A stretch of 64,000 nucleotides of DNA. Origin: Antedon mediterranea. Lineage: Eukaryota; Animalia; Echinodermata. Both the position numbers and the translations under genes were made by a program. The DNA is taken from positions 24,428,001-24,492,000 of the forward strand of contig NC_092674.1 of NCBI RefSeq assembly GCF_964355755.1. The letters run 5' to 3'. Below, piece by piece: positions 1,811-43,832 of the stretch (the stretch's first letter is position 1; the number at the start of each line of letters is the position of its first letter). The notes beneath the pieces are model-generated. The model had not been told where the DNA came from, searched no databases, and saw nothing but the letters and a program-made list of their open reading frames with translations.

Positions 1811-1987
1811 AGCCATATGATACTATATTTGGCTTTTTTAATTAGGGTTGTGTTTGACACCTCCCTGCTATAAATGTTCCTACTTTACACTTTAAACAAT
1901 ATAAATTGATAATATTATTTTTGTTTATTTAAAAACTTATTAATTAAATTAGTGTACTTTTTAATTAGTCTTACAGTCTGGTTATCA

Positions 1988-9900: not shown

Positions 9901-12900
9901 TGGGAACATGTTATGTCTGTCGAACAGATTAGTCTGTGTGCCTATGCACATAGGTTGATCAACTCATTAATTTAACAAACCTAACTGTTACATAGATAAA
10001 TCATCTTTTTTTCTCCATAGTACATTAGGTACATAGAGTAATGTGAAACGGCAAAACCCCAATCGAGAGATTTTAACTCAGAAGATAATTCTATGGCACT
10101 TTTAGCAAAGTGCCTTTACCTAAAAACAGATATTAAAAGAGCTTTTGAAGTAAAAAACAATTCAAATTCAGTCCTTTCTGGACATCATTTGAATTCTGTC
10201 AATTTGTGGTATTACAACGAGCCGTTTAATGTTTCTCTAGTTTCTTTTTTTTAATCTGGGGTTTAATTTACCATTACCGTTTCAAATAAACTTACTATAG
10301 ACGATGTCATGTAGCCTACGTTCTGACCGAAATAGTAACAAATTTATTTTGACACATAAAGCGTTTATGTGTGTGATACTTGAGCTCACAATTTCGTAGT
10401 ACTCAGACAAAAATTCGAACGTCGATCGGTGGACTTGCATAAAAAAGACAATAACTACCGACTTGGGGCAAGTCCAGATGCCAAGATTTCAGAATGGCTA
10501 CTTACCTTGTGACTTATCACCACTTAGTACTGGTGAGGAACCTGGGGAACCTTCTGAACGTACTTCTGTATTGCTTAACTTCAACTGTTCTAACACATTT
10601 CTAACAATTGTTTGATTTTCTGAGAAGAAAACATTGACATGATTTTACAGGCATATTCGATGTAAGTGGATTACTTCATATACCAGTTGGCTCCACATTC
10701 ATGAGTTTGTATATCTGTTGCCAATATGCTAAGAAGGGGCATTTTTCTTCTACGTTCTTCAATGGCGTTTTATCATAATGTTCCTGTCGCCTGACAAACG
10801 ACACAGTGCTAGTTATGTAATTGCCAGTTATCTTATTATATTATCAAGGTGTTACACTTTATTATTTTTCACTTTATGAAACTTTCACGTTTTATGAAGT
10901 TTATGTTCCTATATTGTCGTATCTTCTGCATGTTTATTTTATTAAACGGATTAGGCCTACAGATAACAAGATTCATAAATAATGTTAACAAAATAGCATA
11001 GGCCTATGTATGAAAAAATATAGAGCTATTACCGTCTGTAAAAAAAAATGGTTCAGGACTCTCTTTCATACTTGAAGCGATTTGTGATTGAGCCTTGAAA
11101 ATCAATTGGCTATCAGTCGTGCATTTTAACCAAAATTGACTGTTATCCACTAATGCTTCTTTTACCATTTTAGCCTAAGTGAAATAATTCAGACAAAGAA
11201 GTTATTGTTTGAATGTTTATGTTTGTTTGTTTGTTGTTTGAAAACATTACCAGATTTTCCAGTTATTGACAGTTCTCAAGTATATAAACCAGCTATCATT
11301 TTGTATAATTAACATAATATTCAAAATGATCTTGTTATCATAATGTGTTAGCGGTACACAAACAGTTACTCTGCTGACTGTTTGTTAGATAAGGAATGGT
11401 TACGTAATGTATAACATTATACTGTACTTGCAAGCAGATCATCATTGTTGACCTAATGTTTTTCAACTTAATTTTAATTTTCTTTCGTGAAATAATGGTT
11501 TTTTTATTGTTTCACGATGCCACATTATTCTTACATCTTTGTTGTGTTTATAGTAATAACTTACCTTTTCCTTTTCGAAATAGACTATTTCTTTTATCAG
11601 TGAATCATTGAGTTCATGAAGGTCTTCAAGTCCCTGGATATAGAAATGATAATAATCAACAATGATAATGACCAACTATAATATTAATTAGGCCTAATTG
11701 TATATCTAATCCTTTTGCACTTTCCATTTTGGTGAACCACTTGGCAGCAATTTTCAATTTTTGATTATTACTGATATATGAATGAATATCTCTGTAAAGT
11801 TCCACACTGTGTTTGTGAATCTATTTTAGTCTAGGCAAAAAATCTGGAAAAAAAAATGAGTTAGGGGGAGTGGAATGTTAGAGGCTGTCAACATAGCCAG
11901 ATATCCTAATTAATCCCTTCTGATCACTCTAAGCTCTGTTGACACTTAATTTTAACCTTGTCTTGAAATGGCGGCCATTTTTCAAAATGGCGCTAATTGT
12001 ATATAAAATGTGCATAACATAAGATCTAAATAAGATAAATACACAATATTGGTGTCTAAACACATGTAATTCAGACACGGAATCCATTAGGCCTTGTTGA
12101 CACTTCAGTTTTTACTTCGTATTGAAATGGCGGCCATTTTGTTTATAACTTTTTTTACTGGAAAAAGTAAGACATTTTTGTTTCGGCATGAAAAAATAAT
12201 GGCATATTGCAATTTGTTTTGAAAACATGCAAACCTGTTTGTGTCTTCTTAATTTAGTTAATAAAAAAATGTGAACCTTTGACCCCCATCAGCAACTGGT
12301 TAGTTAATGCATAAATTAACTCTTCATGAAGGATTGGAAATTGTGATTTAAAACAAACTTTCTCTAGAAGTATAATTCATATTTTAAAAATATAATTCTT
12401 CTTTCAAAATAAAGTTAGACGTATTTTTCAAAATCAGGAAGTAATAATCAACATAAGCATAAAACATAAAAATTACCTTATTTAAATCAACTTCCATTTT
12501 GTCTTTGAATTCCAACCGTTTGCCACCAACAACTCTTTTCAGTGTGTTAATCTGCAACATTTATGAAATTACATTACTTGAATATTTGATCGGTCATTTA
12601 TTTGTTTGAAATATTTTTGGTATCTTTTATGTAAAGAGAATGATATAAATGTCGCTGTTGCCCAAAACATGATTGAAACTTTGAAAATGGTATTTAAATC
12701 AAATAGATCAATAATTTGAAATTTAGAAAAAAATGGTGTCATATAGTCTATAGTCTATATATTATAGATAAGATAATATAATATTTATTGGTCCATCATA
12801 AAATATGTTGGAAAGTCATTTTCCAAATGGCGTACACATACAAAAATACATATAAAAATTACAAATATAAATATATAAAAAGATACCATGTACTTAAAAA

Positions 12901-15533
12901 CAGGCGAACATTTATAATCAAATCCCGTAAATTTAATTGAAATTCGATTATTATTCTAGGATAAACAATAAAGAGGCGTGTTTTATGAAAAACCTTTTTT
13001 ACAAATTCTTAGTAATTTTTTTACGATTTTTACCTTAGTTCGGAGTCTAGATATTTCCGATTGTTTTTCCTTCCTTTTCTTCCTCAATACATCAATACCT
13101 TCATGTTTTTTTTCAATGATCTTAAATACATTTCCAAATTGGTTGCACTAAACAAAAAAGTGATTCGTGATCACTCAGATGTCAATAGTTAAATTAACAC
13201 CAGTAAAATAAGTAATATTTTAAATGCTCTTCCGTGTAGATGAAAACTTCCGAGATTAGAAATGTGATCTAAATCGGTTTTATCATATGATTTTTATTGA
13301 CTCATTGTCTTTAATGTATTGTCATATCTGCTGTTATTACATTATATTTAGGCCTATATAACAGTATTTGACTGAGCGTTTGAGAGTGCTTTGCTCTACC
13401 GTGAGAACGAGTGTTCTCCCGTTTCGTACTTTTTTCATTATAACAATCTAAACCATATTCTACTTTTGGTGGTATTCATGGGACCCACCGTTACATCAAT
13501 AGACGAAACCATTTCTAATTTCTCGCTTACCTGAATAAACCAAGCATGCGCTCTCTCGTTCAAAGAGCAAAAAAAAAAATATAATATCCCTATATAATAA
13601 TGGACTAATCCGGCAAATTGTTATACAATACCTGTTCCAGTATGTCCTGTAGTATGGAGCACATTGCGTCATCCAAGTTAACCCAGTTGGAGAAAACCTC
13701 ATAAAAAGCCGGGTTACTTTCATTTTTAGACCATTCCAACAGTGCACTTGATACTATATAGTAATGTATATAAATAATCGGACTATTAATTTACACCGTA
13801 AATATTCAGCAAGAGGAATAATCGGACTATTAATTTACATCGTAAATATTCAGCAAGAAATGCGTTTAGCTACGAATTTCCACACTAGGTTCCCTAGCCA
13901 CAACGCAAAAACAAGTTGAACAATGGCAAGCAAGAATTCCGATGAGCCATCGCCTGCCTGCGATTAGTCAAGTTACTTAGCCTACTGAAAAATCTTGAAT
14001 TTTTCTCCTTAACGTCGTTCCAAATTCTTTCCTAATGTCAATTCTTCCTTTTCCCCGAACCTACTGTTCAACATCTACCCTTTATGACGTTTAAGCTTGG
14101 TTCCCACTAGGACGCAACGCGACGTAAATGCAACGCAAGCGTGTTGACCAATGACCAGCGAGAGTTCGAATAATCAATTGCTTGTGATTGGTCAATTCCT
14201 GTTACGTCCTTGTGTTGCGTCTCTAGTGGGAACCAATCATAGGGTGTCACGAAACCTAAAACCACGAAAGCTAAGACCCCCTAAGACCTAAGATCACGAA
14301 AGCTAAGACCCAAGACCTAAGATTACAAATTCTAAGATATATTACAGCTTAAAAACAATACTTGTTTATCCATACATAATTTTAAACACAGTAGGTTTCA
14401 TTTATTACCATAAATATAATTAAATACTACTGCAAAACATAGATAAACTCACATTATTTCGCCCGTTGAGCAAACTTGACGGGTTGTTTGTTAGTATATA
14501 TTTACTCCATTGTGTTGGTTCAGAGGATGTTTTTCTTACGCACCTGCCTTTCTAAATTCTTGTATTTTGACTCCAAATTTGTTGACTAACTCTATCCTGA
14601 ATACCACACTTTAAAATTAGGATTTAAAAGTACTTTCAGAAGGAGAAACACATAAAAACAAATAAATAAATCCTTTAAATTGATGATTTTACAGACATGT
14701 TTCTTTGTATACTCATAGAGATATTATAGTGAACTATTATAATATCTCTACTATACCTGTGACTCCTCGAGTTCCCCCCATGCTCAATGTTTTTGTTTCT
14801 ATGAAGCGCCAAAATAGCAACAATAATAGTACAAGTATAAAAACAGAAAGAAAACGAAACAAAAAAACTTATTATCATGATTTTTAAATTAAAATGTATT
14901 TGCCAGTATTTATTTCTTCGTACTTGCATGATTATACTATTATCATTACAATTTTAATTTTACATTGTTCCATCCACACTGTAGATGGACTCCACAGAGT
15001 TTTCAGCCCTCTATATAATTTTTGCTCTTTTGACGTTCCATAGAAACAAAAACATTGAACAGGGGTAGGCCTACTGTACTGTAGGCTATAATTCATGCGA
15101 AATTTGCAAACAGTTTGTGTGCGAGAAAAACGTCTGTAAAATCATCAATTTAAAATTGTATTTGTTACTTTTTATGTGATTCTTTTTCATAAAAGTGCCA
15201 ATTCTAAGGTGTGGTATTCAGAATAAATGTTGGGAGGTAAAATACAAGGCAGGTGCGAAAGATAAATATTTGTAATCTTAGGTCTTGGGTCTTAGCTTTC
15301 GTGATCTTAGGTCTTAGGGGGTCTTAGCTTTCGTGGTCTTAGGTTTCGTGACACCCACCAATCATACGATAATATCGGTGCTTTTCAAGATTCTTACATT
15401 TTTTTATATTTCTTGATAGGTTTCCTATGGAATCCTTGAGTGCATTTTGATAAAAGAAAACATCGTATATGATACTTAGACCGGTTATTTTCATCATCTT
15501 GTGAACATTTCTTCCCATTGTCTTGTTTGCCAT
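6983..15533 (-). CDS. Paralog A: BAR-like domain plus ITAM/YxxM/SH3-ligand tail, 12 exons, ~661 aa
   Basis: Exons: 15533-15398, 13753-13632, 13147-13034, 12551-12477, 11633-11565, 11174-11033, 10619-10506, 9818-9666, 9350-9189, 8668-8237, 7885-7508, 7071-6983. All GT-AG, total 1986 nt, no internal stop. Exons 1-6 are homologous to those of the other three copies. The last acceptor is the least certain. Confidence 0.8.
7334..7489. mobile_element. MITE family 1 copy in the last intron of paralog A
   Basis: GCTTGGTTCCCACTAG...CTAGTGGGAACAAAGC inverted ends. Confidence 0.8.
8972..9119. mobile_element. MITE family 1 copy
   Basis: TAA-GCTTGGTTCCCTCTAGGACG...CGTCCTAGTGGGGACC..CAAGC-TTT. Confidence 0.75.
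14242..15356. mobile_element. Non-autonomous Mutator-like element with ~88-bp TIRs and 10-bp TSD, in intron 1 of paralog A
   Basis: GGGTGTCACGAAACCTAA... at the left end and its reverse complement ending at 15356. ACCAATCATA is duplicated at 14232-14241 and 15357-15366. A second foldback lies inside at ~14539-15257. Confidence 0.85.
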
Positions 15534-19690: not shown

Positions 19691-22600
19691 TCACTGGTCA
19701 TTTGAAGGACAAAGAGATGTGGAGATGTTCGATGGAGTTGGTTTACTTCTAAAAGGGGTTCCAACAAGTTCCGAAAATGTTCGAATATTATGGTCGTCGT
19801 TTGTGTGATATCTCGATGGAGCAGGCTTTCTGTCAGAAGACGATCGAAGAAGTCTTGAAACTGCTGAGATATTATCGCTTGGATTATGTCTGAAAGACGC
19901 GGAAGTATGCAAAACACTTGTATAGATATTTGATGAAGGTTCACCGCCGCCGGAAGTTGCTCCAAGATGCCTTGATACTTGTGGAATGCTGTGGTCGCCA
20001 ATATCTAAAACATAAACAGCATCAATGTATCACAATATATCGAAACAAATTTAACTGAATTTTGACATCTTAAATAGGCCTATTCATATTAATAAAGGTT
20101 TTTTTAAATTATTATTACTTTCAAAATTGTTATTGAGCTGCCCCAATTTGCTTGCCACACTTTACAAGGATAATCAAGTAAAACTTAACCAACAGTAACA
20201 TTATTAATGGAATCTGATTGTAGGATTTGATGAACTAAGAGTATATTTTCTTTTAAATTTTATTTCAACTACATATCTGCGTACTACAGAAACAATCAAT
20301 ACGAAATTACACAGTGACAATGAATGATAACTAACCACCAGTCAATGTAATATATTATATTATTATATTTTAGTTTCACCTGTTTTGGCAATATTCGATG
20401 AATTACCATCGCTGTTTACCGTGTCATTGGTCGGTATGTTTGTCTTTGTTCGCCGGGAACTTTTACTTTTCGTAAAAGATGGCAAACGCCAATTAAAATC
20501 AGATTTCTTGGCTTTATCTGTAAATCCAAAATAGAGTTTAAGATTATTTCATTCAACCAAGACTGAAACTGGTATATGTTAACACAAGATCCTAAGTTTA
20601 ACGGAGACACGTTCAATGAATACTGAAGTAAACCCCAGAAACTGAGGAAAATGTTTAGTAACGATAAAGAGCGCACTATGTCAGCCATGATGATATTTGA
20701 ATTTTGTGACGTCACAAATATATTAATTTTCTAAATGATAATTATAACACAAACAACAATAGTTTTTGACATTTTACTATGTAATGAAACCATAAGTAAC
20801 ATTAGTCGAGAAATCGATTTAGTTTACCGATTTTCGTATCGTTTTTTTTTCGTATTCTTATTTTAATTACCTTGTGATGTTTCACTACGTGGATTATCTG
20901 AACGTAGGCCTACTTCTGGATTACGTAACTTGTCTGAATGTTCTTCTAGATTACGTAACTTGTCTGAATGTTCTTCTGGATTACGTAACTTGTCTGAACG
21001 TTCTTGTGGATTACGTAACTTGTCTGAACGTTCTTCTGGATTACGTAACTTGTCTAAACGTTCTTCTGGACTACGTAACTTGTCTAAACGTTCTTCTGGA
21101 TTACGTAACTTGTATGAATGTTCTTCTGGATTACGTAACTTTAACTGATGTAAGGTATTTGTAACAATTGTCTGATTTTCTGTGAAAAAAAAAACATTTA
21201 TCACTATGTAGGCCTAATTAGGTACATAATTTTGTCAGTGGTAATAGGTCCAAAAGATTCTTCATTACTCGTACAGAAGGAATGCCTTCATAATAGTCAC
21301 TCAATATTAGGAATACTGTATAATGTTTAAATAATACCATTGAATATTATAGTTATTAGTAATGTTAATTTTACTTGCTTACTAATTACGTATATTACAT
21401 TGCACATCGTGATTAATTATACATATTGAGTTTTGGTTGTTGTTGAGCCAATGTCAAACAAGATTTGGATAGTAATTATTCCAAATAATGGGGTGTTTTA
21501 AATATTAAATAGATAAAGTTAAATAATATGTTATCATCGCAACATAACATAAATTACCAACCGAGAAAGGTACTACTATAGTATTAAATAATAGAAATTG
21601 AATAATCACCATCTGTAGAAGAAGATGATGGCTCTGAGCTGTCTTTTATATTTAGAGCGATTTTTGACTGAGCCTTGAATATCAGTCGGATGTCTGTTGA
21701 GCATTTTAACCAACACTCGCTGTTGGCCACTAGTACATCTCTGACCATTTTAGCCTATGGAAGCAATTTGAATTTTTTTAATCATCTGACAATAAATTAT
21801 TAGTATGTTAGGTTTTTTGCAGCAGAGAACAAAAAAAGACCTTTGTCCATAGGATTTGGTGTTTATTCTAGGAACAACCAGTATATTTTGATCAGCCGAA
21901 CGAAGACGAGCAAGAGGGGTTTAAGAGGGAAGAAGATCAAGTAGATAAGTAGGTTGTTTAAGTAGTCGCGCATTTTAATGTTAGTAAAAGGATCTTATGT
22001 TTTATAAGGGAGTCAATAGGTAGCCAATGGAGGTTATATATAAGGAGATATTTGTGACAATTAAGAAATTCTTGTAAATTGTCCGGACTCTACGCATCAT
22101 CTCCTAGTGCCATTTCTTTTTGTTTACGATGCTCTCAAATACTCTTCTATCGCATGATTTCCTACCTTCCACATCTCTCAGAGTGCTTTTACTTCTGTGC
22201 ATTAATGAGTTTGTTATTCATGGATAGTTTTTGTTTTCATCTTTGTTGTGTTGCCCATGTCTCGTCTTTACTTGTATCAACATTAATGCTGTTTTTTTTG
22301 TAACATTTAACAATTAAATTTTTATTTATTTCTCTATTTTTCCTCGCAATGTCATGTGATTTCCTGTGCTGCCTTGCTTCTTACATAAAAGTTTTAGTGA
22401 ATGACAAATTTTTAATAAATATTTTTTTTTGTATAGTAACAACTCACCTGTTCCTTTTCAAAACAGAATGTTTTTCGTGTCAGTTTTTCATTCAATTCAT
22501 AAAGGTCTTCAAGGCCCTGAATAATGTAATAATGAAATAAGCATAGAGTTTTTTTGTCACATCAAGTTTGATAGTGTAGACAGAGCTTAAATCAATGTTG

Positions 22601-24427
22601 TTCAGATTGATCAACGTGCTTAATACCCAAACAAAAGTCATCTTTAACTTTGCCAATGACTATTGATTATTACAGTTTGAAAACAAATTATTAATTAATA
22701 ATATTATATATAAGAAATACCTTATTTAACTCCACTTGCAGTTTGTCATTGAATTCCGCAAACCGTTTTCCGCCAACTAGTTTCACTGTGTTAATCTGTA
22801 AACATTATAAAATGGCATAATTAAATGTTAGAAATACGTTGGATAGAATCTTGGGTTTTCTAAGATGATTATTATAAATCACAAATCATTATAACAATTA
22901 AAAATATAAGGTATCAAAATAGTAAAAAAACTTGGGAGGAATAGAGATGCAGCTTGGTGGTTAAGATTATCGGCTTCGTATCCGGCCGAATCCATGGAGC
23001 CGGGTTCAAATCCCTTCAAGATTTTCACTACAAAAAAACTACAGTTATTTTGTTGTAGTGTATAAGTAGTATTAGAACTCCACTGTCAAAGCATCATGCG
23101 TATTATTTTTCTCGCGGATTGACACCTTTGGGGAGGACTGTGAATGAATTCGCTAATATTTTAATCTTTAGCTATATATAATGTAATAAAGAAAATAATA
23201 ATACAATTGTTTCCTTCTTTACCTTAGTTCGTATTCGAGATAGTTCCGTCTCTTTACTATTCCGTTTCTTCCTCAACAAATCAATACGTTCATGTTTCTG
23301 TTCAATGATCTTGAAAGTCGTTCTGAAGCCGTTGTACTATAGGAAATATGAGATTGTGTATGTTTTCTTGACTATTGTAGACGGACAATAGCAATATATT
23401 CGGCCTATTAAATAATTGTTTTGGTTTCATTGTTTAGTTCTCATATTTTCTGTCTTTCAGCAATAATATATATAATAACTGCTTTATCTGTGTGTGCCCC
23501 GTTTGAATTTAGATTAACACTCTGTAGCGACCATTGTCTGATTTCATTTCATTATTTATTTGGTCTTATTCACCAAAAAAAAAAAACAATTTTGGATACT
23601 AGGGTACGGTCACTGTGGCAGAGTCGGGTCAGCTGGGTGGAGATTGTTTTCCCGAAGATCCTATCGCTAATTTAAATGTTATTTATTACCATTACGTCAG
23701 AAGTAGACAATTTATATTACCTGTTTTCGTATATCCTGTAGTATGGAGCACATTGCATCATCCAAGGTAACCCAGTTGGAGAAAACCTCATAAAAAGCCG
23801 GGTTACTCTCATTTTTAGACCATTCCAACAGTGCACTTGATACTAATGTATAGAATAATATAAATAGGAAACCTCTCAGCAAAAGGATCCCAGCAATGGA
23901 AACAAGCCAATACCGGTAAGCTTTTTGGGCTATCATGGAAAACCTTTTATAAATGGATTTATTTGTAATGTCAGTAATTTATGTTATCACTTTGTATGTA
24001 TTTTTTATTTTTATTTTTCTAATAAATTCAAATCAAATAAAAATCATAATATGCAATTTTATTTGTATTTCGATGCACATTATATTAATGAATCAGGATT
24101 GGAAATGTTTAGATTGTACATTCTATTGATTGACTGGGTTATTTTGACATTACCTTTCAAAAAGTTAAACTTTTTTTATTTATTTATTTATTTATTCGGT
24201 ATATAAAAATATATTACAAAACGACAGTCAAGGACTGAAACTTCAATACATATAAGTGATGATATGTGCTTTGGAAAGAGATAAACACAATTCTTACAGT
24301 TTTTAATATTTCTTGATAGTGTTGTTACGGAATCCTTAACTGCGTGTTGATAAAACAAAACATCGTATATGTTACGTACACTAGTCGTCTTCATCATCCT
24401 ATGAATATTCTTCCCGATATTTGCCAT
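19691..24427 (-). CDS. Paralog B: BAR-like domain plus minisatellite-expanded, tyrosine-poor tail, 9 exons, ~462-471 aa
   Basis: Exons: 24427-24298, 23842-23721, 23336-23223, 22795-22721, 22516-22448, 21754-21610, 21179-20871, 20517-20407 (alternative in-phase donor at 20380), 20004-19691. All GT-AG, open frame, 1389 nt with the shorter exon 8. Confidence 0.8.
20905..21142 (-). repeat. Coding 30-bp minisatellite (~8 units, KLRNPEERSD) inside exon 7 of paralog B
   Basis: Unit TTCTTCTGGATTACGTAACTTGTCTGAACG repeats with a 30-nt period between a valid acceptor (21179) and donor (20871). Confidence 0.92.
21815..22075 (-). mobile_element. L2/CR1-type LINE 3' fragment
   Basis: The - strand reads LVVPRINTKSYGQRSF, characteristic of the C-terminus of L2 ORF2. 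Confidence 0.5.
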
Positions 24428-26843: not shown

Positions 26844-29800
26844 TCACTTTTTTTGCGAATAGGTTGTGTATTTTAAGTCCTCTTGGCTCTTTGAAAATTG
26901 TAGACTTTGGATCTTCGGTCCCTTAATATTGGTGGAGATAGATAGTGTAGGTTCACTACCAGAAGCCTTCTGAGGCGGCCCAAGAAGTTTCGATACGTTT
27001 GGCATGTTGTGGTGGTCGCTTGGATGATGTAGGTCTATTAAGGCTACGGAGGTACAAAGATCCAATACATCGACGGAGATTTTCGAAAGAGGAGGTTCTA
27101 TGATAGAAGGCGGTCCATGAACTTTTGGGGTGTTCTGGTCGTTATTTGGACGCTGCAAGGAGCTGAAGTATTCAATTTTGGTTGAGATTTTTGATAGAGT
27201 AGGTTCACCGTCAGAAGGCGCTTCAAGAAGTTTCGAAACCGTTGAGGTGTTGTTGTCATCGTTTGGATGTATTGAAGGTACCGACATACAACGATTCAAA
27301 ACGTTTGTGGAGATGCTTGGTGGAGAAGGTTCACTTTCAGAATGCTCTCCAAGATGTCGCGACACTTTTTGAACGTTATGGTATTTCACGCTATTGCAAG
27401 CTTTCTCGTAAAGGGCGTATACCGAACTGCAATCTACAAAAATTAAAACAAACTACAAAAAATTACGTTTTGTAGAAACATGGTTATAAACATAAAACAT
27501 GCCCTGTTTAATAACTATAGCAGCAACAAACAAGCGACTGTACTTGTATACCGTTCTTGTTCTTGAGACAACCGTTTTTATCACCAATTAGTCGCCAAAT
27601 CACTCCAACAAAATAGCCAAAAAATGTATTATGCTTACCTGACATGGGTTCAATTATTACAGGAACTTCATATTCATCTTCGATGATCTGATTTGAGCTT
27701 GTTGACATATCTTGATAATCTGAATCATCTGCTTCAGTAACAACATTTTGAAGTTGGCGTACCTTTGAAGAAATCGGTGACATGGTTTGATATCGATCAC
27801 GGTCTACGTCAATAGAAGGTGATGACGTAATTGGTAATTCTTTGTCGACTGGATCGTGTGAACTGACGTCCAACTGAACATTCATTTCTGCTATATCTTG
27901 ATATATGTCATCATCATCTATTATTCGTATGTATCTATCATCTTTCGAGTAAAGAGGAACTTCAATAATATACAACAAACACTTCATATGAAGGTGAAGG
28001 TATTCAAATCTGAACATAGGGTAATAAGCTGTTAGGAGCTCATTTTACTAAGCCTCGGCATTGGTAGGGTGGCCAGTTCCTTTCCATCGTACGCCGCCTT
28101 ATCCTCCCTAGAGTGTTTTTAACCAGGTACGCATTTACAGCTAGCTGAGTAGAGAAATTGAACCCAGCTCTCTCTGTATGCCCTAACCACTGGACTACCC
28201 AACTCCTTAAACGTTATATACAGCCTCAATAATATACTTGATAAAAAAGGTCTTATTCTCTATATAGAGTTCATTACCCTTCCAGGATTTAAACTATATT
28301 TAACTGAAATATATATGGTGAGTTTGTAGTAACAGACTGTTTATTTATTGTGTTATTAGTACTTTCTAATATGGATGTGATGTTTACCGTTTGTCGTAGT
28401 ATTACCTGTGGTTCCATAGATACTTGATGCATTGGTATTGCCTTGTTTTGTGTCTGAAGTTGATTTCCCGTATTTTGCAATCTTTGACAAGCGGGAACCC
28501 CATTTGCTAGTAGGAATAGCGGGTAAACTCCGGAAAAAATCCGTTTTCTTCGATTTTTCTGTAAAATGAGAAAAGTTAAGTCTCCACTGGCATACTTCCG
28601 AGTTTGTAAAAAAAGTTTCCAAAGTTTGCTATTATAGTGTAGGACAGTTGACAAACTTCGGAAACTTCAGAAAACAAGGTTGCATAAGTCATAAGTCTAC
28701 ACTACTTAAACTTCAGCACGCTGCAGATTTGTAAACAAAATTGTGGGTGTATAAACTATACTTAGAGATTATTTTCATTTTAATCGATACAAATGTGATT
28801 AGAAGTTCCGTTTCAGATTTCTGATTTACCTTGTGTTGGACTTTCTGACCGTACTTGAGAAATTAAACTCAACTTCAGCTTCTGTAAAACATTTCTAACA
28901 ACAGCTTGACTTTCTGTAAACAATTTACATCGAATGAAAACATTAGTAAATACAAATTTAGTAAATTATATCGGTCATATAGTCAGGACAGATGGCTTGG
29001 ATAACCTATCATTGACTGAAAAGATAGAAGGAAAGAGGAGCAGGGGTAGAAGTGATTTGGATGACAAGTGTAATTGAGTGGTTAACAGAAAAATGTGTAA
29101 AACATCAAGTTAGCGAAATATCGTTGATTAATAATAGGGAGCTTTCGATTGGTTAGATCCAAAATACGTGATGTTAAATCATTATGCGCAGGCGGGAAGA
29201 TTAAGACATTTCCCAGAAGCCACTCACCGTTATATTTGCAGCTACTTTGGCCAACATCTCCATAGTCACTAACACTCTCCAACTTGTCGCCAGACAAAGT
29301 TATCGATTGATATATTGAGGTATCAGCATCTGCAATATCGTCATTACTATTACTTTCAAGATCACTCGCCTGATCTTTGTAAATGGGATTAGTCGGTTCG
29401 TTATCCTCTAAAAAAAAAAGATTTCATCATCATTATAATTATCTAAAAAATTAAAAAAGGTTACCTTTTAAAAATTGTTTAGCAGGGTTTATTGTGTTTG
29501 TTTTTTTATGAAAACCCAAAACAATACCAAATCCTCAATTCACTGAACGTACTGATCAAAGGGTTTATCTGTTACACGATAGGTTTAGAAAAAGAAATTT
29601 ACATATAGTACAGTACTGTTGGTATTTGTCGCAGCAAGATAATAAGATCAAAGTACTGTTAAATTTTCATATCTTGGCAAGGCGATAACAGTGTTCTATT
29701 GTTAGATTGCCTTGATCTAACTGATCAATAATATTTATGTCTACCTGTAGTTTGGCAGATATTAGATTCAGTGACATTGTACAATGACGTTTCTGATGTT

Positions 29801-29931
29801 GAAGTATTTATCTGCATTGAATTCGAACGTCTGATCGTTGGTGGAAGAGATGGTAAACTCCGGAAAGAATCAGATTTCTTCAATTTTTCTGCAATTAAAA
29901 GTGATTGTGTTTTGAATGTTTATTCCAATTC

Positions 29932-29964
<33 letters not shown>

Positions 29965-32110
29965 CATCATTTTATTAGGCTAAACGGAAATTAATTTCCA
30001 TTAGTTCAATAACAATTATAAAATGTAATTGAATACAACAACAAAATTACCGTCTGTAAAAGTCAATGTGTCTGGGTTGTCATTCATATTCAATGCAATT
30101 TGTGATTGGGCCTTAAATATCAGTTGACTGTCAGTTGAGCATTTTAACCAACAATCGCTGTTTGCCACCAATGCCTCTTTTACCATTTTAGCCTAAGTAA
30201 ATAATTGTAAGAATATTATTTTTTTCATTTTCAGAACACTGTCAGACCATTTGCTGTCTGACTGCTAACGTAGCGGTACGCATTATTTTTTTCATATTAG
30301 GTTAAGGAAGAAACTATAGAGGGCGTGACCATGCATGTTTGTTCTGTCTCCGCGCCCGCAATAGACATTCACTTTCTCTGCATACGTTTTGGTTTCGGTA
30401 TTTGTGAATGGAAGTTTGATATATTTTAATACTTACTTTTTCCTTTTCGAAACGAACTATTTCTGTTTCCAGTAGATCGTTAATTTCATACAGTTCCTCA
30501 AGTCCCTGTAAAAGTATTAAAATAGTATCAATGACCGGAGTAATTATACATTAAGGCCTAAAAGCTAAAGTATACCGTATAATCCATGAAATGAAATATA
30601 ATGTTATTGTTCTCCACCAGCATGGTTTAATAATACCTTGTGTAGCTCAAATTTAAATTTGTCATTGAATTCAGACCATTTGACACCGACTCGTTTCATT
30701 GTGCTAATCTAGAAAAGATAAATTGCGTCTTTTAATTATTAATTCGTAAATAGTTTGGTTATGGCTTGAAACTTCTTTATATGAAAGCAAATTATTGTTA
30801 ACTTTGCTGCTGTGTTTATTATAATCTTATTTTTTTTACAAAAAAAAAAAACAATTTAGATACAGTAGAGCCCTAATAACGGTTCTGATTGGTCAACTCG
30901 CCTGAGTTGCGTCACGTTGTTGCGTTGCGTCTCTATAGTGGGAACCACGCTTCTATGGAAGAAGAAGCTGTAGGCCTATAATACTTACCTTCGTTCGAAT
31001 TCTAGCTATATCCGTTTGTTTGTCTTTCTTTTTCTTTCTCAGCACATCAATACACTCGTGTTTCATTTTAATGATCTTAAAAGTCTTTCTGAATTCGTTG
31101 CACTAGCGTATGAAAAAAAAACAACTAATTTATTAGTTATCAACTACATTAAATACTTCTTACATGTCTTCTAAAACATACTCAAAGGACGATGATTGAC
31201 GATAGATAAATATACGTTTTTCTTACAAAAAACAAAAGGAAATTATAGGTCTAGGAATAGGATAACGATAATGATCGACGATAAATAAGCATAATTTCTC
31301 TTAAACGTTTTCACCCTAAAACTAAGATAACCATGCTCTCTTTGATAATAAAACAAAACAATCCAAATGACGTCATAAGCAATAAGAACATTATAATCAT
31401 TGTATAATCACGATATTATTGCTATTACTATCATCATGACGTAATGTGATTGAACGTGTTAAAATAATTATTTTTTTCAAAGGCAGCATAAATAATTATC
31501 CTATATTAGTATGAACACTTTTCAAATTTGTATTATGTAATCAATATCATATATACTAGTTATCGTCGATCGTTATTGTTCTAGTATAAAATTGTTCACT
31601 GTGTATTTTTTATGGAGTAGACGATTGACATTACCTGTTTTAGTACATCCTGTAGTAGGAAGCAGCCTGCTTCGTCTAAGTTAAACCAGTTGGTGAAAAC
31701 GCCATGAAATGTTTGGTTACTCTCTCCTTGTGACCATTCCAACAGTGCTCTTGATACTAAATAAATAATATAAGATTGTTTATTTATTATTTTAAAACAA
31801 ACTTTTCTATGATTTTATGATTTTTAAGTTACCATTTTTGTGTTAACTCGGTTGCATGGTTTTCACAAGTTTAAATAAGGGTCGCTGACCGATGACATAA
31901 ATCTTACGAAACTGCAAAATACGTACAGGACATTTAGAAAGAAACTTTAAGCAAACATTTTTAATTCTTACAATTTTTGATATTGGTTATTAGTTGTCCT
32001 ATGGAATCCATAAGTGTGTTTTGGTAAAACAAAACATCGTTTATGATAGGTAATCCAGCCATCTTCTTCAACCTATGGACATCTCTACTTCCAATTGTCC
32101 TATTCGCCAT
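26844..32110 (-). CDS. Paralog C: BAR-like domain plus ITAM/YxxM/duplicated SH3-ligand tail, 12 exons, ~715 aa
   Basis: Exons: 32110-31972, 31756-31635, 31102-30989, 30708-30637, 30505-30437, 30192-30051, 29888-29745, 29407-29228, 28913-28830, 28558-28388, 27959-27639, 27433-26844. All GT-AG, 2148 nt, open. Contains EIVRFEKEKAKMVKEAL. Confidence 0.8.
28970..29052 (+). mobile_element. RTE-clade LINE 3' fragment
   Basis: Translates to YIGHIVRTDGLDNLSLTEKIEGKRSRGR, typical of the RTE ORF C-terminus. Confidence 0.55.
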
Positions 32111-34943: not shown

Positions 34944-37900
34944 TTAATGCTTTGGTGGCAATTCTGGTGGTGGTACGGGTGGTGGTAAAGTCGGTGGTGC
35001 TCTTCTTGGTCGTGGCCGTGGTTGTGGTTTAGGAGATACTACAAAAAGCAAAAACAAATGTAATGAAAATAATTGTGTATTCTCATATGAATATTAAAAG
35101 GAAACAACATTACAAAATAAAGACCCAACTAAATCATACCCACATGAGGTAATTTAAGCTCTCAAAAATAAATTAAGTTTATCTTGTACTTTTGTATCAC
35201 TTTTTAAAAGCAAGATCAAATGCTTTCACATGTTTAAATTTTCTAAACTCTTTCAATTGATGTGTATTTCAACTATCATTAACCATCACAAGCCAACCAT
35301 AGTCATCACTAATTATCTGATACTCATACCTTTCTGAGAGTCGGGTACATCTGGTGGATTAAACAATTGTAGTTTTCTGGCTAGATTAGGCGAGGTTTTC
35401 TTTTGTGGAACTGGTGGAGGCACAAAGACGTTTGCACTTCCACTATATTCATCAGGTACGGTTAATGGGATTGTTGTTTCCAAAGAACTTTTCTTAGGTG
35501 GCCTGGGAGGAGGCAGAGAAGGATTTAAATCTTCATATATCAAGTCACTATCTCGCATATCTTCACCAGGTCCATCTGCCATGACAGCGAGATACGATGT
35601 ATCATCAGAAAAGTCGAACTCTGTCTCTGTATCAGCTGATGGGTAAGATATATCTGTAGACAATCTCTGTTTTCCTATGTCTTGTAAAAACCCAGAAGGG
35701 TATTTTGGCTGGTCGAATCGTGGACTTGTACTCGGTGGTGGTTTGGTTGGAGGTTTCATAGCAGGTGAAAATCTTGGTTTTTCCATTCGTGAACTTGTAA
35801 TTGGTGATGCTTTGGTTGGAATTTTAATACCAGGTGGATATCTAGGCTGGTCCATGTCTTGCACCAAGAATGTATACTGACTGCCACCTGTAAAATGTAA
35901 ATATAGTGAGCTGAATTGGCTATTTTAAAGAGATTTATCATTTATTTTTTTAAGGCTCTATTATTAAAGACAATTTTATTTTATCTGTTATTACCATTTC
36001 CATTGTGAATTTCTGGTACCACATAATTCTCTTCATCGAGGTTGTCATTGTTCAATACTGTATATTCATCATCATCACTTGGATCGTCGTCAAATTCATC
36101 TTCATCTAGTTCTTCTGGTGGAACTTGAGGAAGCGGTCTTGAAATACTGGTTGAAGGCTCTTCCACAAGACACTCTGGCAGAGTAAAACTTTCTTTTAAT
36201 AATCATTCTTGAATTGGCTGCTAATTTTGTATGAATATACCAAAATGAGGTAAAGATATTTATTAATTGTCCTCAAATTTAACTACAAATTGAGGAAATT
36301 TATATTAGGCCTACTGACAGCAGTTGCGAGACAGTGTGCAGATCTGGGTTATTTTTGCAAAGTTTAGTTAGCTTACTGTTGCTTTAGTTTATCAATTTTT
36401 TTTATGATAATATTTAATATTAAAGCATACCTTTTGAGGTTTTATGAGAGAACTTTGGCAATTTTGTTCCAAAAGAGCTGAATATACTAGATTTGTGGTG
36501 GTCTTCTGTGTGATGTTGTAGGAAATCTGCAGATGTTTTTCGGGGCTGTGGTGAAATTTCTGCTTTTGTTTCCCGTTCTTGGAATGGTCTGCTGCTTTTG
36601 GTTGACTCTGCTGGCTTTGGTTGTTGTTCAGGCTTTTGTAAATTTAGTTTATGGAATGTTTTACGAACCAACATTTCATTTGCTGAAAAAAAAAATGCAA
36701 AAAAAAACTTTTACGGTCTGTTTCTGCTGCATAGTGCCGAATAAACTGTTTAACACCCCTGTCATTTGTCAATCAAATAAACCGATATTTTGGGTTTCAG
36801 CTAAAAGTTGCACCGCCTGCTATAACCGGTTAAATGGTGTTCTAACACCAATCAATTAGGTGTTTTAAATCATTATTTTTAGGCTGCCATTTAACCGGTT
36901 ATTGAAAATTTGTCCTGTTGCTGTTATTCACCGTTATTAACCAGTTATATTTCGCAACAGACTAAACAGGACCTTAGTATTAGTACAGTAAACCACAAGC
37001 CCATTCTTGTCTCACAATGCCAGATTTTGGGTTCAGTCTTGGCTCACTCATGATTAAAGTTCCTACTTCTCAATGGGATTCAGTTGAGAAGCGCATGCTT
37101 TAAATTCTCATCTTCTGAGATATGTTTAGAATTTTCAAATATTCATTTGTAAGATTTTTGTACTAAATCAGGTATTAAACTAAATGTTGTTCTTAGAAGT
37201 ATTGGTATAAATATTAACCATCAGTGACTTGATCTTCAAATATGACTGGCTTTGATGGCATTTCCTCTGCTATTTGAGACTGAGCTGTAAATATTTCCGA
37301 AGAGGTCTGAGCAAAGGTTAACCAGCCTTTGCTGTACACTTCTAGAGCATTCTTAATTGTTCTCGCCTAAGAAAAAATAACATTACACTTGTTCAGTAGT
37401 ATTAACAAGAGTTTGGCTCAATTTACTCTCCTTTCTCTTGCCTAGACCAATGTTACCATACAGTAAACTACAGCTAAAATTGTCTACTATAGGAGAGGGT
37501 TTATTATATATATATAGTCTATCTGTACATATTATAATAGATGGTACTGCCTTTATACTAATAGTTTTTATACTGTACAGTATTTTCCTCAATTTTACAT
37601 ACAGTACTTTACATAGAGTACCGCAAACTTATTACGTTAGGCCAGCTAGTGTTTTTTTACCAAATAATTTAATAAATAGTTTATTTCAATGATAGTAAAA
37701 CCTACCTTTGTCTTTTCAAACTCCTCTACAAATGCATTGAGCTCTTCAGCCATTCTTTTATCTTCTTGTTCAGCCTGCAATAATGGGAAAAATTTAAGAG
37801 TTTTCCATTTATACCCTATTTACACTATCACCGTAACAGCGGTGTAACCCCGCAGTTGTTAGTACACCGGGCCGTTAAACGCCGGTGTTGTGGTTTATAT

Positions 37901-40730
37901 TGACTGGTGTAAATGGGAAAATCCAACCACCCCGGTGTGCTCTCCCCGGGGTAAAACGAAGCTGAATGTATTCCGGTGTACCTTCTCCGGTGTAGTCGAA
38001 TCTACACCAGAGACACAAGGTGTAAACGGTTTTTGTGGTTCAAAACCGAGCTGTTAAAGGTCATTGACGTGAAAATGTAATATTTTGTCACAGAAATACA
38101 ATATATTATGCAAACAAAATAGTTTTTTTGCTTAAAATATACACCCCTTTTTTGCTTAGAACAATAATTGTACGATATGTGCTGTTCGTTATTTTCTTTT
38201 AAAGGCACAAACACATTTGTGACTTTTCTTTTCTGCTGAAAATATTGAAATTGTTCGTGTGCATTTACCAGAAAGCCTAAAATAATTTGATATTGGTGTA
38301 ACTCTACCCTGGCCGATTCTATGTAGGCCTAATTATAGAAAAAGGGAAAATATATAATACTGACGTCTCAATGGATGAAAAATGATATCTTTTTTAGGAA
38401 CTGAAAAAGTACCATAATAATGTTCCTTCATTGATACATTGTTATGCTTATTAAGAAATACATTTTTTATTTTAAATACTTACCGTACCTACCCTATTTT
38501 TACGCCAACCTAACAATTTAAGGCCTATTTAATGTACGTACAGTCTACAAGGCGGAAATGCAGTCATTTTAAAAAGAAAAATAATTGTTAGGCCCTAATT
38601 TTTAAAATAATAAATGATAACCTTAATAGCCACAAAGAAAATATAACACTGGACTACATTCAAAATTAAATAAATTGTGTGTAAATTCGGATTATTATGT
38701 TTTTATATGAGATTTGTCGATATGTTCCAGTGTTTAAACGTTTTAAACCATAGTCAGTTAAGTTCCACGTGTGCGCTTGCAATACTGATTTGATTGACAG
38801 CACCGGGGTGATAGATGTAGTGTAAATGGGCGCAACTCGAGTTCATCTCGCAGTTTTTTTGGCTAGTGTAAATGGAAATTGCCTCCGAGTTCAACTCGTG
38901 TTCCTCTCTCAGTCGATAGTGTAAAAAGGGTATTATAGATAAGGTGATCGAGAGTATTGGTCAGCTGGAACAGTTCATTCTAGAGTTATGAAAGCTTTGG
39001 CATGAAAATGGCAGGACTATTTATATGTAGCTTTTTTCGTTTACAAACTAATATTGAGGTAGAATCAAATATCAGGAATGGTCAATTATTTCATTAGACA
39101 GCCAAACTTACCAACATCAATTCAGACTCCAAAGTATCAAGACGCTCTGGTTTCTTGCTAGCCTTCTTAAGTGCATTCACCTTTAAATATAATAGAAATA
39201 AATTAGTAGTAATGATGAGGGCAGAATATCTGTTCGTCAGTTACAGTAGTGTACAAAGTAGAACCTTAACTTCGGGAAACCTCTATCCAGGAGACATACA
39301 TCCTGTGAAACGAACAAGAGGCAAGTCACATGGCCAACCTTATTTAGGAGATGCTAGGTCCCAAAGATGTCCACCCGAAGATGTCTACCTGAAGATGTCC
39401 ACCCGAAGATGTCCAGAAAGAGGTTCTTAAAAACAATAAAGTAGCCTACTTGGGTAATCTCTTTCCTGTGAAATGATGACCAATATATTATGTTTCAACA
39501 TGCACTGCTCGCAACCCCTACTCAAGGAAAACCTTTATTAAGGCGACAATTTGCTGGGTTCTGAATGTGTCCCATTAATATAGGTTCTTTTGCATTATTA
39601 TGTTACCTTTAATTTTAATTTATACACTTCATTTGCTTTTGATTCCTTCTTTTTCATAAGCTCACACATTATTCTTTCTTCTTCTTTTATTCCTTTGAAC
39701 ACTTGCCGATAGTTTGCAAACTGGAAAAATAAATTTCAAAAATGTTATATTAAAAAAAAAAGCAAGAAAATTATGACAAAATTTGACATCAGCATAATGT
39801 AAATTACACTTTTTGAGCTCACAAGCCAACCATCTAAAATCTTGTGCTTTTCACAATTTTTTTTCTATGTTTAAAAAAATTTACAATTTGATTGATCCAG
39901 TCGCTCAGGATGTTTCTCCCTATTTTTTTTAATATATTTATGAGGGTGATCCATCCAGCAATTGCTGATTATTAGGGACCCCCATAGGTTCACAAGACAA
40001 ACATATACACAAGATGCTCTACATCAACAAAGTCTTATTACAAGTCTTTGGGAGTGGAGTTGTAATTTTGTCCTTAGAAAAAATCCTAACATGTGACAGG
40101 ATTTGAACCCAGGACTATTGAATTGGTAGCCCAGCATCATAACCACCAAGCCACAACTCCACTCCAAAGGCAGGAACATCTTCTTTAATATAACAATTGT
40201 ACACATACTTCACCATGTAATTCTTGTAACAATAACCACAGCGCATTATCCAAATCAAACCAATTAGTTAAAACGTCACTAAAAGTGAAATTAGTTTCCG
40301 CTTGACCCCATCGCATTACTGCTCTTGATGCTAAATAGAAAATATATTAAACAATTAATTTTAAATTATCAGAAATAAGTAGCAATACTTATAGTTAATT
40401 TTTAAATGCATTATTATAGGCAGACAATAGTTTGAACATTAATTTTACACAAAAACACAATAAAAAAAAGTATACAGTACATAATATGACATTTGATAGG
40501 CTTATTATGTTTAACATAAAGGAAGACTGCTAAAAAACAAACTTGTGAAAGTGCCATTACTTCCTTGTAGAAATAAATGAAGTCTTACATTCTATTATAG
40601 CTTTTTGAAATTTAGCAACAGATTCTATCAATGTTTTCTGTAGGAATAGGACTTCATCAAGAACTGGTGCATTGGTGAACTTAATCATTAACTTTTGAAA
40701 GTTTCTTCCGACTTTACTCGACGTCATCAT
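34944..40730 (-). CDS. Paralog D (most divergent): BAR-like domain plus acidic-Tyr and proline-rich tail, 10 exons, ~582 aa
   Basis: Exons: 40730-40589, 40330-40209, 39720-39607, 39180-39112, 37774-37706, 37366-37219, 36682-36431, 36174-35995, 35887-35330, 35038-34944. All GT-AG, 1749 nt, open. Exons 2, 3 and 5 have the same sizes (122, 114, 69 nt) and phases as in copies A-C. Confidence 0.82.
37811..38932. mobile_element. ~1.1-kb non-autonomous TIR element (Harbinger-like) in intron 4 of paralog D
   Basis: ATACCCTATTTACACTATC at the left and GATAGTGTAAAAAGGGTAT at the right, with repeated GTGTAAATGG subterminal motifs. Confidence 0.6.
40025..40166 (-). mobile_element. tRNA-derived SINE fragment
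   Basis: TGGCTTGGTGGTTA...GGGTTCAAATCCTG (A and B boxes) without a proper cloverleaf. A related head occurs at ~22949-23090 (+). Confidence 0.55.
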
Positions 40731-41710: not shown

Positions 41711-42087
41711 CCCTTCTCTTCCTCCCCTCTTCTCTTCCTCCCCTCTTCTCTTCCTCCCCTCCTCTCTTCCTCCCCTCCTCTCTTCCTCCCCTCCTCTCTT
41801 CCTCTCCTCCTCTCTTCCTCTCCTCCTCCCCTCCTCTCTTCCTCTCCTCCTCTCTTCCTCCCCTTCTCTCTTCCTCTCTTCCTCCCTTTCTCTCTTCCTC
41901 CCCTCCTCCCCTCCTCCCCTCCTCTCTTCCTCCCTTCCTCCCCTCCTCCCTTCCTCCCCTCCTCCCTTCCTCCCCTCCTCCCTTCCTCCCCTCCTCTCTT
42001 CCTCCCCTTCTCTCTGCCTCCCCTCTTCCCCTCCTCCCTTCCTTCCATCCTCTCTTCCTCCCCTTCTCTCTTCCTTCCCTCCTCTCT
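41711..42087. repeat. Polypyrimidine/polypurine low-complexity tract
   Basis: Almost exclusively C and T, with a degenerate (CCTCCTCTCTTCCTCC)n pattern. Confidence 0.9.
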
Positions 42088-43667
42088 CGTATCCGGATAT
42101 TCACCCCCTGGACATTTACCCCCCGGACAACTACCCCCCGGACAACCACCACCTGGACCACTACCCCCTTAGGACAACTACCCCTTTAGGACAACTAACC
42201 CCCGGACAAATACCCCCCGGACAACTACCCCCTTAGGACAACAACCCCCTTAGGACAACTACCCCCTGGACAACTACCCCCCGGACAATTACCCCCTAGG
42301 AACAATTACCCCCCGGACAATTACCCCCGGACAATTACCCCCCGGACAATTACCACCCAGAAAACTATCCCTTTAGAACACCCTAACCACCCAGACCATT
42401 CAACAACCTGACTCTGCAACTATTAATTAATAACTATATTTTAATTCGTTACTTTGACGAATTACTATTCATTATTGTAAACAAAAGTAAAAGATTGAAC
42501 ATAAATATAGCCTGGTGGTATAAACTGAAGATTGTCACACATGATCATAGGATAGTCGAACGTATTATATAGTACTCCCTGTATTTACTGTAAAAACTGG
42601 GTTCGCTAATAATAATAATAATTTTTGCGTCAGGACAATGCTTCGATAACCACTGGTCTTAAAAGAATTAATTTTTGTCTCAAATTTGTCATTTTGTATT
42701 TTTGTACACTTGAAGAATAATATCACTTTTGATATTTGACCTCAATGTTCACTCACCGAATAAACGGCGATCTTTAAATAAATTCCCCTCAAATAAACGG
42801 TGACCATGTAACTCCCATGACACATCATATGGAATAATCGGCGTCTATTTTCATTAGATTATACTCCCTCCCATTGAATAAACAACTTTCTTCCAATAAA
42901 TGTCCACCTAAAAACCACCTAAACAATAAACAGCCCAGGCCGTTTTTTTCAATAAATACGGTACTTTAAATCTAGCACATCTAGGGTCTAGCGTGCTGTT
43001 AAACAGAATAATCGGTTAAAAACGGGTGTTTCGAAACTAGAGACCCGAGACCAGAGACCAGAGACCCGAGACCCAATACGAAAAGGGAGACCTAAATATA
43101 CGAAAAGAGAGACCCCACTATACGAAAAGGGAGACTCCACTATACGAAAAGGGAGACCTAAATATACGAAAAGGGAGACCAAATATACGAAAAAGGAGAC
43201 CCAAATATATGAAATGGGAGACCCAAATATACGAAAAGGGAGACCCACTATAAGAAAAGGGAGACCACACTATACGAAAAGGGAGACCCTAATATACGAA
43301 AAGGGAGACCCAAATATAGGTCTCCCTTTTCGTATTGGGTCTCGTGTCAGGTCTCTGGTCTCGGGTCTCTTGTTTCGAAACACCCGTTAAAAACCGGGGG
43401 GTAGTTGACCGGGGGGTAGTTGACCGGGGGGTAGTTGACCGGGGGGTAGTTGACCGGGGGGTAGTTGTCCTAAGGGGGTGGTTGTCCTAAGGGGGTGGTT
43501 GTCCGGGGGGTTACTGTCCTAAAGGGGTAGTTGTCCTAAAGGGGTAGTTGTCCGGGGGGTAGTTGTCCGGGGGGTAGTTGTCCGGGGGGTAGTTGTCCTA
43601 AGGGGATAGTTGTCCGGGTGGTAAACATCCGGGGGGTAACTGTCTAGGGGGTAGGTGTCCTAGAACC
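42088..43667. mobile_element. Mutator-like foldback element with modular TIRs (GGACAACTACCCCCC repeats) and 9-bp TSD
   Basis: C-rich ~15-bp repeat array at 42095-42360 is mirrored by a G-rich array at 43395-43660. CTCCTCTCT is duplicated at 42079-42087 and 43668-43676. Confidence 0.8.
43024..43385. mobile_element. Nested 362-bp Mutator-like MITE with 9-bp TSD and internal 22-bp tandem array
   Basis: TIR GGGTGTTTCGAAAC...GTTTCGAAACACCC. GTTAAAAAC is duplicated at 43015-43023 and 43386-43394. Internal array (TATACGAAAAGGGAGACCCAAA)n. Confidence 0.88.
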
Positions 43668-43832
43668 CTCCTCTCTTCCTCCTCTTCCCTATATTTTTAG
43701 CTTATTTTGGTTTATTTATTTCATTTACATTTTAATGTTCTTTTTGCTATTTTGTTTATTTTATTATCCATACAGTATTACAGGTATTTTAAAAATAAGA
43801 TGCAAATAAATTAAAATCAAACTCGTTCTTTT

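Follow-up and report, generated by a model that had tools for sequence, protein, structure and literature searches.

A tandem family of predicted BAR-domain proteins with SH3-ligand and tyrosine-motif tails in Antedon mediterranea

Four tandem genes of the crinoid Antedon mediterranea encode predicted BAR proteins whose closest described counterparts are FAM92A/CIBAR1 (Pfam PF06730; PDB 9uhd and 8ceg), the sorting nexins SNX1/SNX2/Vps5 (8a1g), the eisosome proteins Pil1/Lsp1 (PF13805; 3plt, 8qb7 and 8qb8) and the N-BAR proteins amphiphysin/BIN1/BIN2 (2fic, 3sog and 4avm). Here and below, statements from the literature follow excerpts of the cited papers. Mutation of three lipid residues in region 4 of FAM92A causes a ~90% loss of binding (PMC12269497), and Drosophila, too, has one clear FAM92 orthologue (PMC6904220). 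Pil1/Lsp1 bind lipid through K130, R133, R145, K148, K159 and K165 (PMC3128537, PMC3257569), and a segment N-terminal to the Lsp1 BAR domain is needed for membrane binding (PMC3257569). The Pil1/Lsp1 basic patches have been called equivalent to those of amphiphysin (PMC3128537). Animals, according to the excerpt of PMC10010689, have no direct Pil1/Lsp1 orthologues. The genes described here, named A to D, lie in a window of 64,000 nucleotides, which is the whole stretch analysed (assembly GCF_964355755.1, contig NC_092674.1, positions 24,428,001 to 24,492,000); coordinates below are those of the window.

The four genes are a real, spliced and selected BAR family with an undescribed architecture. 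The copies are locally expanded and their divergence lies mostly in the tail. With a probability of roughly 50%, they constitute an unnamed BAR family on the FAM92/SNX-BAR side of the tree that likely serves as a curvature-localised phosphotyrosine scaffold. The domain itself is most likely a fast-evolving animal branch on that side, neither a FAM92 orthologue nor a Pil1 of the fungal type. Pil1, FAM92 and SNX1 recur across the Pfam, PDB sequence and Foldseek searches, as an earlier note made from the letters alone had proposed, and the domain qualifies as a member of none of the three.

The core of paralog D consists of six coding exons on the minus strand, with GT-AG ends and an open spliced frame, that encode a 215-residue domain. 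Their outermost ends are 37219 and 40730, exactly the interval that the earlier note had given, and the nine peptides that it quoted from the window all map to the minus strand. The exons of the gene are as follows.

40589..40730, minus strand: exon 1, with the start codon, a predicted amphipathic helix (roughly residues 4-19) and the beginning of BAR helix 1
40209..40330, minus strand: exon 2, end of helix 1, turn and beginning of helix 2, with 14 of its 40 positions invariant across the four paralogs
39607..39720, minus strand: exon 3, helix 2 with a conserved basic patch (K97, K111, K112, K116 and K126 invariant)
39112..39180, minus strand: exon 4, arm tip, with the end of helix 2, a loop and the start of helix 3
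37706..37774, minus strand: exon 5, helix 3 with an invariant F-E-K
37219..37366, minus strand: exon 6, closing part of helix 3 and of the BAR domain
36431..36682, minus strand: exon 7, beginning of the low-complexity tail
35995..36174, minus strand: exon 8, class I SH3-ligand motif (residues 318-324, window 36119-36139), then an acidic stretch with Y343 and Y356
35330..35887, minus strand: exon 9, proline-rich tail with Y464, Y483 and class II PxxPxK motifs
34944..35038, minus strand: exon 10, proline-rich end and stop; its junction comes from the XP_071951088.1 model alone

Exon 6 is 100% identical to XP_071951088.1, a 582-residue "uncharacterized protein" of Antedon mediterranea that forms a cluster of one, carries no name in RefSeq or UniRef and has no Pfam domain above threshold. 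Splicing is seen in one sequencing run, X1, taken as RNA by guess (no listed run is recorded as RNA). Eight joints with intron ends were found there, each from one contig at a depth of 64.7, and a single public contig is spliced at every core junction. They account for all 5 core introns and for 8 of the 9 introns of the XP_071951088.1 gene, the ninth lying outside the compared stretch; none of these joints is present in run X2. The introns of D are rich in repeats. A very high-copy interspersed repeat occupies 39884-40265 in the second intron, with a summed contig depth in X2 of 9,000-64,000 compared to <10 for single-copy DNA, and further repeats lie at 36637-37018 and 37783-38928. Within the proline-rich exon 9 there is a 69-base repeat of 2.2 copies (35707-35855, minus strand).

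Three further copies lie downstream of D on the same strand, C at 32110-26844, B at 24427-19691 and A at 15533-7443. Their gene models are predictions from splice sites and homology, and their proteins were not found in the protein collection searched. All four cores have six exons with identical phases, 1,0,0,0,0,1, and no stop codon; exons 2-6 measure 122, 114, 69-75, 69 and 142-148 bases. A, B and C are 59-67% identical among themselves and 30-36% identical to D, and 50 of the first 215 positions of D are invariant in all four paralogs. The ratio of nonsynonymous to synonymous substitution rates (NG86) among A, B and C is 0.27-0.37; against D, synonymous sites are saturated. The parts of the three copies are listed below.

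30051..32110, minus strand: BAR core of paralog C, six exons, predicted
26844..29888, minus strand: tail exons of paralog C, predicted; SH3-ligand exon present twice, 19 tyrosines
21610..24427, minus strand: BAR core of paralog B, six exons, predicted
19691..21179, minus strand: short tail of paralog B, predicted; 10-residue repeat, degenerate SH3 motif and 3 tyrosines only
11033..15533, minus strand: BAR core of paralog A, six exons, predicted
7443..10619, minus strand: tail exons of paralog A, predicted; SH3-ligand motif, 15 tyrosines

The internal tail exons are symmetrical and of phase 1, and can therefore be shuffled or skipped with ease. The tail exons of C (26844-29888) follow the order 8, 9, 7, 8, 10, 11 relative to the order 7, 8, 9, 10, 11 in A; this reflects either an internal duplication or the remnant of a fifth gene's tail. 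The tail of B is without the tyrosine-rich exons. Its exon 7 contains a 30-base tandem repeat (20913-21141, minus strand; 7.6 copies, 94% matches) that encodes the 10-residue charged repeat.

The structure of D residues 1-215 was predicted twice with AlphaFold2, from a single alignment row (model 1) and from ten rows, after addition of nine paralog exon fragments (model 2, in which the exon-3 rows each have two misplaced residues). Both models consist of a short helix (residues 4/6-19) followed by three long antiparallel helices whose length and arrangement are those of a BAR domain (22/24-58, 62/63-133 and 137-207). The mean predicted local distance difference test (pLDDT) score is 74 for model 1 and 81 for model 2. 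In a structural search (VIA, model 1) of 48,161 representative chains, the best 7 matches are all BAR domains. Bin1 aligns with Z 14.6 (root-mean-square deviation, rmsd, 2.9; 198 residues aligned), AMPH-1 with 13.5, arfaptin 13.1, ACAP1 12.5, APPL1 12.2, plant SNX1 12.1 and APPL 12.0. FAM92A1 reaches 11.5 and Lsp1 10.6, and most non-BAR rows align far fewer residues. The superfamily is supported besides by Foldseek, Pfam, PDB sequence and Atlas feature matches. Thus the BAR fold that the earlier note had proposed is supported for the D domain as modelled.

The predicted domain has additional features of a membrane-binding BAR. An N-terminal 11-residue segment ranks first to third in hydrophobic moment among ~208 windows in each of the four paralogs, so that an amphipathic helix is predicted ahead of helix 1, as in N-BAR proteins; this first helix has a low pLDDT, 46-57, in both models. 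In helix 2 and the tip, 10 of the 52 columns of D 89-140 are basic in all four paralogs. Mapped by alignment, rather than on a dimer surface, these basic residues would lie on the membrane face and tips and coincide with the mapped lipid sites of Lsp1 and FAM92A. Two peptides put forward earlier lie in copies other than D. The basic patch LRKKRKEK is in paralog A (13087), not D, and EIVRFEKEK is in paralog C only, F-E-K alone being invariant in the four.

The tail of D has 361 residues, 17% of them proline, and no Pfam domain was found in it. The motif R-x-L-P-x-x-P occurs once in D (318-324), once in A and twice in C, is degenerate in B, and sits in an otherwise poorly conserved exon. It is close to the class I SH3 consensus and to a Src-specific ligand (PMC11653366). 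Tyrosines were scored by a rule requiring at least two acids at -5 to -1 and I, L, M, V or P at +3, with 5000 shuffles as the null. An acid-preceded tyrosine with a hydrophobic residue or proline at +3 is the signature of Src-family sites and SH2 ligands. The rule is satisfied by 4 of 9 tyrosines in D (0.5 expected; reached in 9 of 5000 shuffles). In A it picks out 5 of 15 tyrosines, a count that 2 of 5000 shuffles reach, and in C 6 of 19, which none of 5000 reaches; none of the 3 tyrosines of B qualifies. At the motif level, A, C and D have what a Src-substrate scaffold would have, a class I SH3 ligand together with several acid-preceded tyrosines, and B does not. The conserved SH3 ligand and the enriched tyrosine motifs argue for a function of the tail.

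Overall length, start position and register point to FAM92, as does the structural score. Like FAM92A, D has a BAR domain of ~210 residues at the N-terminus, in a colinear and near-ungapped register (+3/+4), with the helix-3 motif F-E-K-x-K and no PX domain. Pfam FAM92 matches the D domain over residues 87-201 (expect value, E, 3.6e-3), and on the whole protein it is slightly ahead of Pil1. In the PDB sequence search the domain matches FAM92A best (E 0.038, without gaps over 140-203). The structural alignment to FAM92A has Z 14.1, rmsd 3.3, 205 aligned residues and 15% identity, tied with amphiphysin/Bin1. The aligned spans are equal, D 1-210 with 5-214 of 9uhd and D 3-210 with 7-214 of 8ceg_B, and the sequence and structure alignments have the same +4 register. 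In addition, all four paralogs are basic at the columns of the three FAM92A region-4 lipid residues, the best agreement among 61 shifts, and the residues at three helix-1 dimer positions of FAM92A remain basic or hydrophobic. The Antedon family however differs from FAM92A in its predicted amphipathic first helix, its tail of 250-490 residues with tyrosine and SH3 motifs, and its four tandem copies.

The amphiphysin/BIN1/BIN2 group has the highest structural scores (Z 13.8-14.6) and also shares an amphipathic first helix and a long low-complexity tail after the BAR domain, an arrangement found in BIN2. D is only 8-10% identical to these proteins, with no Pfam BAR match and no SH3 domain of its own. 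In the Atlas feature search an unnamed, mostly arthropod cluster came first (176 members, 302 residues, score 0.88, 171 of 256 features); FAM92-bearing oomycete and Asgard clusters held ranks 3-4 (0.87) and Pil1 rank 24 (0.84). One Atlas cluster of 51 members is 93% archaeal, mostly Promethearchaeota (Asgard), and Pfam FAM92 is found in 69% of its members. The domain is read as a divergent branch close to the part of the BAR tree where Pil1, FAM92 and SNX1 come together, with a lean towards FAM92 or an unnamed animal family. As to ancestry, derivation from FAM92 is put first, tentatively; a separate unnamed animal family is a possibility, if a somewhat doubtful one; derivation from SNX1/2 with loss of PX is unlikely, and a Pil1 lineage still more so.

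A scaffold of this kind would most likely operate in five steps. First, two chains would form a crescent-shaped dimer, as BAR domains do. Second, the basic face and the first helix would bind, and bend or sense, a curved acidic membrane, at which the dimer would present two disordered tails as a docking platform. Third, the RxLPxxP motif would bind the SH3 domain of a Src-family kinase. Fourth, the docked kinase would phosphorylate the acid-preceded tyrosines. Fifth, SH2 adaptors would dock at YxxP and YxxM, which are recognised by SH2 partners, while other SH3 proteins bind the PxxPxK motifs. Paralog B, whose BAR domain is intact and whose tail is nearly free of tyrosine, would be a non-signalling partner or a competitor. 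A functional analogue is the activation of Src, induced by curvature, through TOCA F-BAR proteins, whose condensates recruit Src (PMC13001394), so that there too a curvature sensor gathers Src at bent membrane. TOCA however belongs to another BAR class and, in that excerpt, uses condensates and adaptors, whereas here the SH3 ligand and the tyrosines would be carried by the BAR protein itself.

A number of observations weigh against this scaffold reading and its placement. The five steps are all drawn from the predicted fold and from motifs. The fold models were built on 1 and 10 alignment rows, and helical bundles without kinship can come near Z ~14. The FAM92 Pfam match has 17.2 bits for the domain and 16.6 for the whole protein, below the cut-off of 23.6, and Pil1 outscores FAM92 on the isolated domain. 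The helix-2 proline of FAM92A (PMC12269497) occurs in no paralog at either offset, the central basic cluster of helix 1 is lost, and the region-1 sites are mostly not basic. In Foldseek, chain A of the SNX1-SNX5 entry 8a1g is ranked first for both models (E 4.7e-4 and 5.7e-4). All Atlas scores are <0.9 and count as leads only on the tool's own scale. The tails of A-C are splice-site predictions. The tyrosine rule was set after the tails had been viewed, A and C do not count as independent cases, and acidic blocks are broken up in the shuffles; the enrichment is therefore overstated. Taken by itself, the +3 condition does not reach significance in any gene (p 0.06-0.14).

Among the rival explanations, the one that survives best, although unlikely, makes the four proteins descendants of SNX1/SNX2 (Vps5-type) without PX, which would act in endosomal tubule sorting, perhaps as heterodimers with intact sorting nexins. 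The Foldseek rank and the classical BAR geometry speak for this, as does the structural alignment to SNX1 (Z 13.1, rmsd 3.5, 203 aligned). The SNX1 domain is however 11 residues longer over the aligned span (D 3-209 with SNX1 305-522), the D arm being shorter. The invariant F-E-K of helix 3 points in the same direction but is common to FAM92A too. The near-identity of the C peptide EIVRFEKEK to SNX1 is a statement of the earlier note; C exon 5 matched no sorting-nexin chain in the PDB (E<=10). Neither the domain nor the whole protein has a Vps5 or other SNX-BAR Pfam match at E<=10, and no SNX chain appeared in PDB sequence searches with D or with C exon 5. Architecture also argues against this origin. 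The BAR domain lies at the N-terminus, not at the C-terminus, nothing in SNX1/SNX2 corresponds to the long C-terminal tail, and no PX domain precedes the BAR. The absence of PX, claimed in the earlier note, holds up: Pfam gave no PX match in XP_071951088.1, whose RefSeq model begins at the same methionine as the D model, and in A and C the exon that holds the start codon has an in-frame stop shortly ahead of it. For B and D the frame stays open as far as the splice acceptor, leaving room for an upstream coding exon there.

Next is the reading with a special Pil1 affinity, in which the family is a true animal branch of Pil1/Lsp1, either inherited and then lost elsewhere or transferred, that would form eisosome-like furrows linked by the tail to tyrosine-kinase signalling. 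Its case is one of sequence over helices 1-2, which are colinear, and of the shared lack of PX. Pil1 is the best Pfam match of the isolated domain (residues 30-160, E 3.5e-4), and Lsp1 in the PDB sequence search aligns with D 34-163 with only single-residue gaps (E 0.48). Five of the six published Pil1/Lsp1 lipid sites are basic in D and three of the six are invariant lysines in A-D. With a seventh lipid-binding site, which we take to belong to the set, 6 of 7 are basic at shift 0, the best of 61 shifts, the next best having 4. In Foldseek, Lsp1/Pil1 rank 2-3 with the highest identities (17-21% and 15-20%). The basic sites are nevertheless a general BAR trait rather than one specific to Pil1, since 15 of the 44 residues of D 93-136 are basic, the alignment was itself optimised on similarity, and the patches of amphiphysin are considered equivalent (PMC3128537).

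The sequence resemblance over helices 1-2 is real but too little to make the family an animal Pil1, and several other lines contradict a special Pil1 affinity. The Pil1 match has 20.6 bits for the domain and 16.3 for the whole protein against a cut-off of 27; Pil1 and FAM92 both match in Pfam, but both below their cut-offs, and neither Vps5 (E<=10) nor BAR matches. The match is partial, covering positions 64-187 of the 265 in the profile and ending early in helix 3. The Pil1/Lsp1 matches stop at D residues 160-163, so the earlier claim that the end of the D domain corresponds to that of Pil1 is not supported. The structural alignment to Lsp1 is poorer (Z 10.8, rmsd 4.4, 180 aligned; 10.6 in the 48,161-chain search) than that to FAM92A, and Lsp1 is ~20 residues shorter over it (D 12-212 with Lsp1 51-231). 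BAR domains are the best structural matches, and SNX1 in Foldseek and FAM92A in Z are ahead of Lsp1. Lsp1 has a segment of ~50 residues ahead of a shorter BAR arm, whereas in D the BAR domain begins with residue 1. FAM92 or the amphiphysin type fits better in domain length, in N-terminal architecture and in structural score. The animal host, the spliced gene and the tyrosine-motif tail are further differences, and direct animal orthologues are absent according to PMC10010689. Pil1-family BARs can, in the excerpt of PMC12470953, diverge past sequence recognition, which keeps the Pil1 reading alive as a rather improbable one. Its boldest form, a first animal branch of the Pil1/Lsp1 eisosome BARs with an acquired Src-docking phosphotyrosine tail, possibly part of a wider animal family that includes the 176-member arthropod cluster, is a long shot. 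If it were true, eisosome-like furrows would be tension- or curvature-gated tyrosine-kinase platforms in animals.

It is improbable that the four genes are divergent FAM92/CIBAR duplicates with a role at the ciliary transition zone (Chibby, Dzip1), the tail being merely a flexible linker. Colinearity and equal length with FAM92A, the region-4 basic residues and the helix-1 dimer positions would fit. D however stays below a FAM92 cut-off even though the Drosophila orthologue is clear (PMC6904220), the proline kink and the central basic cluster are lost, and a function of the tail is suggested by its conserved SH3 ligand and its enrichment in tyrosine motifs. A generic three-helix coiled coil whose BAR matches come from helical periodicity would explain why all sequence matches are sub-threshold, why TM-scores are 0.4-0.7 and how Z ~14 might arise by chance, but is very improbable given that the seven best ranks all go to BAR domains, matched along almost the entire domain, that Pfam, PDB sequence, Foldseek, VIA and Atlas features agree on the superfamily, and that the helix lengths and basic patch fit BAR.

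The unnamed BAR family on the FAM92/SNX-BAR side, as preferred here, would unite in one chain a membrane-shaping domain, an SH3 ligand and several candidate phosphotyrosines, an undescribed BAR architecture. If it is a scaffold, it would be a compact natural device coupling membrane curvature to Src signalling. Its sequence lies between those of Pil1, FAM92 and SNX1, which also makes it a useful taxon for tracing the origin of the "fungal-only" Pil1 family. Should it be no more than a degenerate offshoot of FAM92 or SNX restricted to crinoids, its interest would be modest.

Homologue searches gave few leads. Word-indexed searches against longer proteins recovered XP_071951088.1 itself as the one hit among 7 candidates for exon 6 and among 222 for an exon-2 profile; residues 1-212 against proteins of 320-1019 residues likewise gave that protein, 1 of 2845. 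Such searches need shared exact 5-mers, so that relatives are not shown to be absent. No relative was found in the metagenome contigs or prokaryote genomes searched, and NCBIfam gave nothing useful. Single exons had no BAR-family Pfam match, and exon-level profiles against the PDB gave noise only. Matches to MANF/ARMET were rejected as an artefact of a profile missing exons 4-5. An Atlas structure search was also rejected; its whole-protein model was poor (pLDDT 0.52) and it returned only bacterial rows at TM<0.45. The open-access literature searched, main texts only, contained no description of this BAR family or of an animal Pil1.

The cluster is flanked by other genes. Directly downstream of paralog A lies a single open reading frame for an ankyrin-repeat protein with a C-terminal SOCS box (4889-6211, minus strand; ASB type, 440 codons). 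A small ankyrin-repeat gene, which we take to resemble ANKRD39, is found at 1913-3103 on the plus strand. On the other side, a FAM69/DIPK-type kinase-like gene (46556-60234, plus strand), with Pfam PIP49_C in three exons, is divergent from the BAR cluster. The interval between the first coding exon of D and this gene holds dense purine/pyrimidine-skewed mini- and microsatellites (41715-44634).

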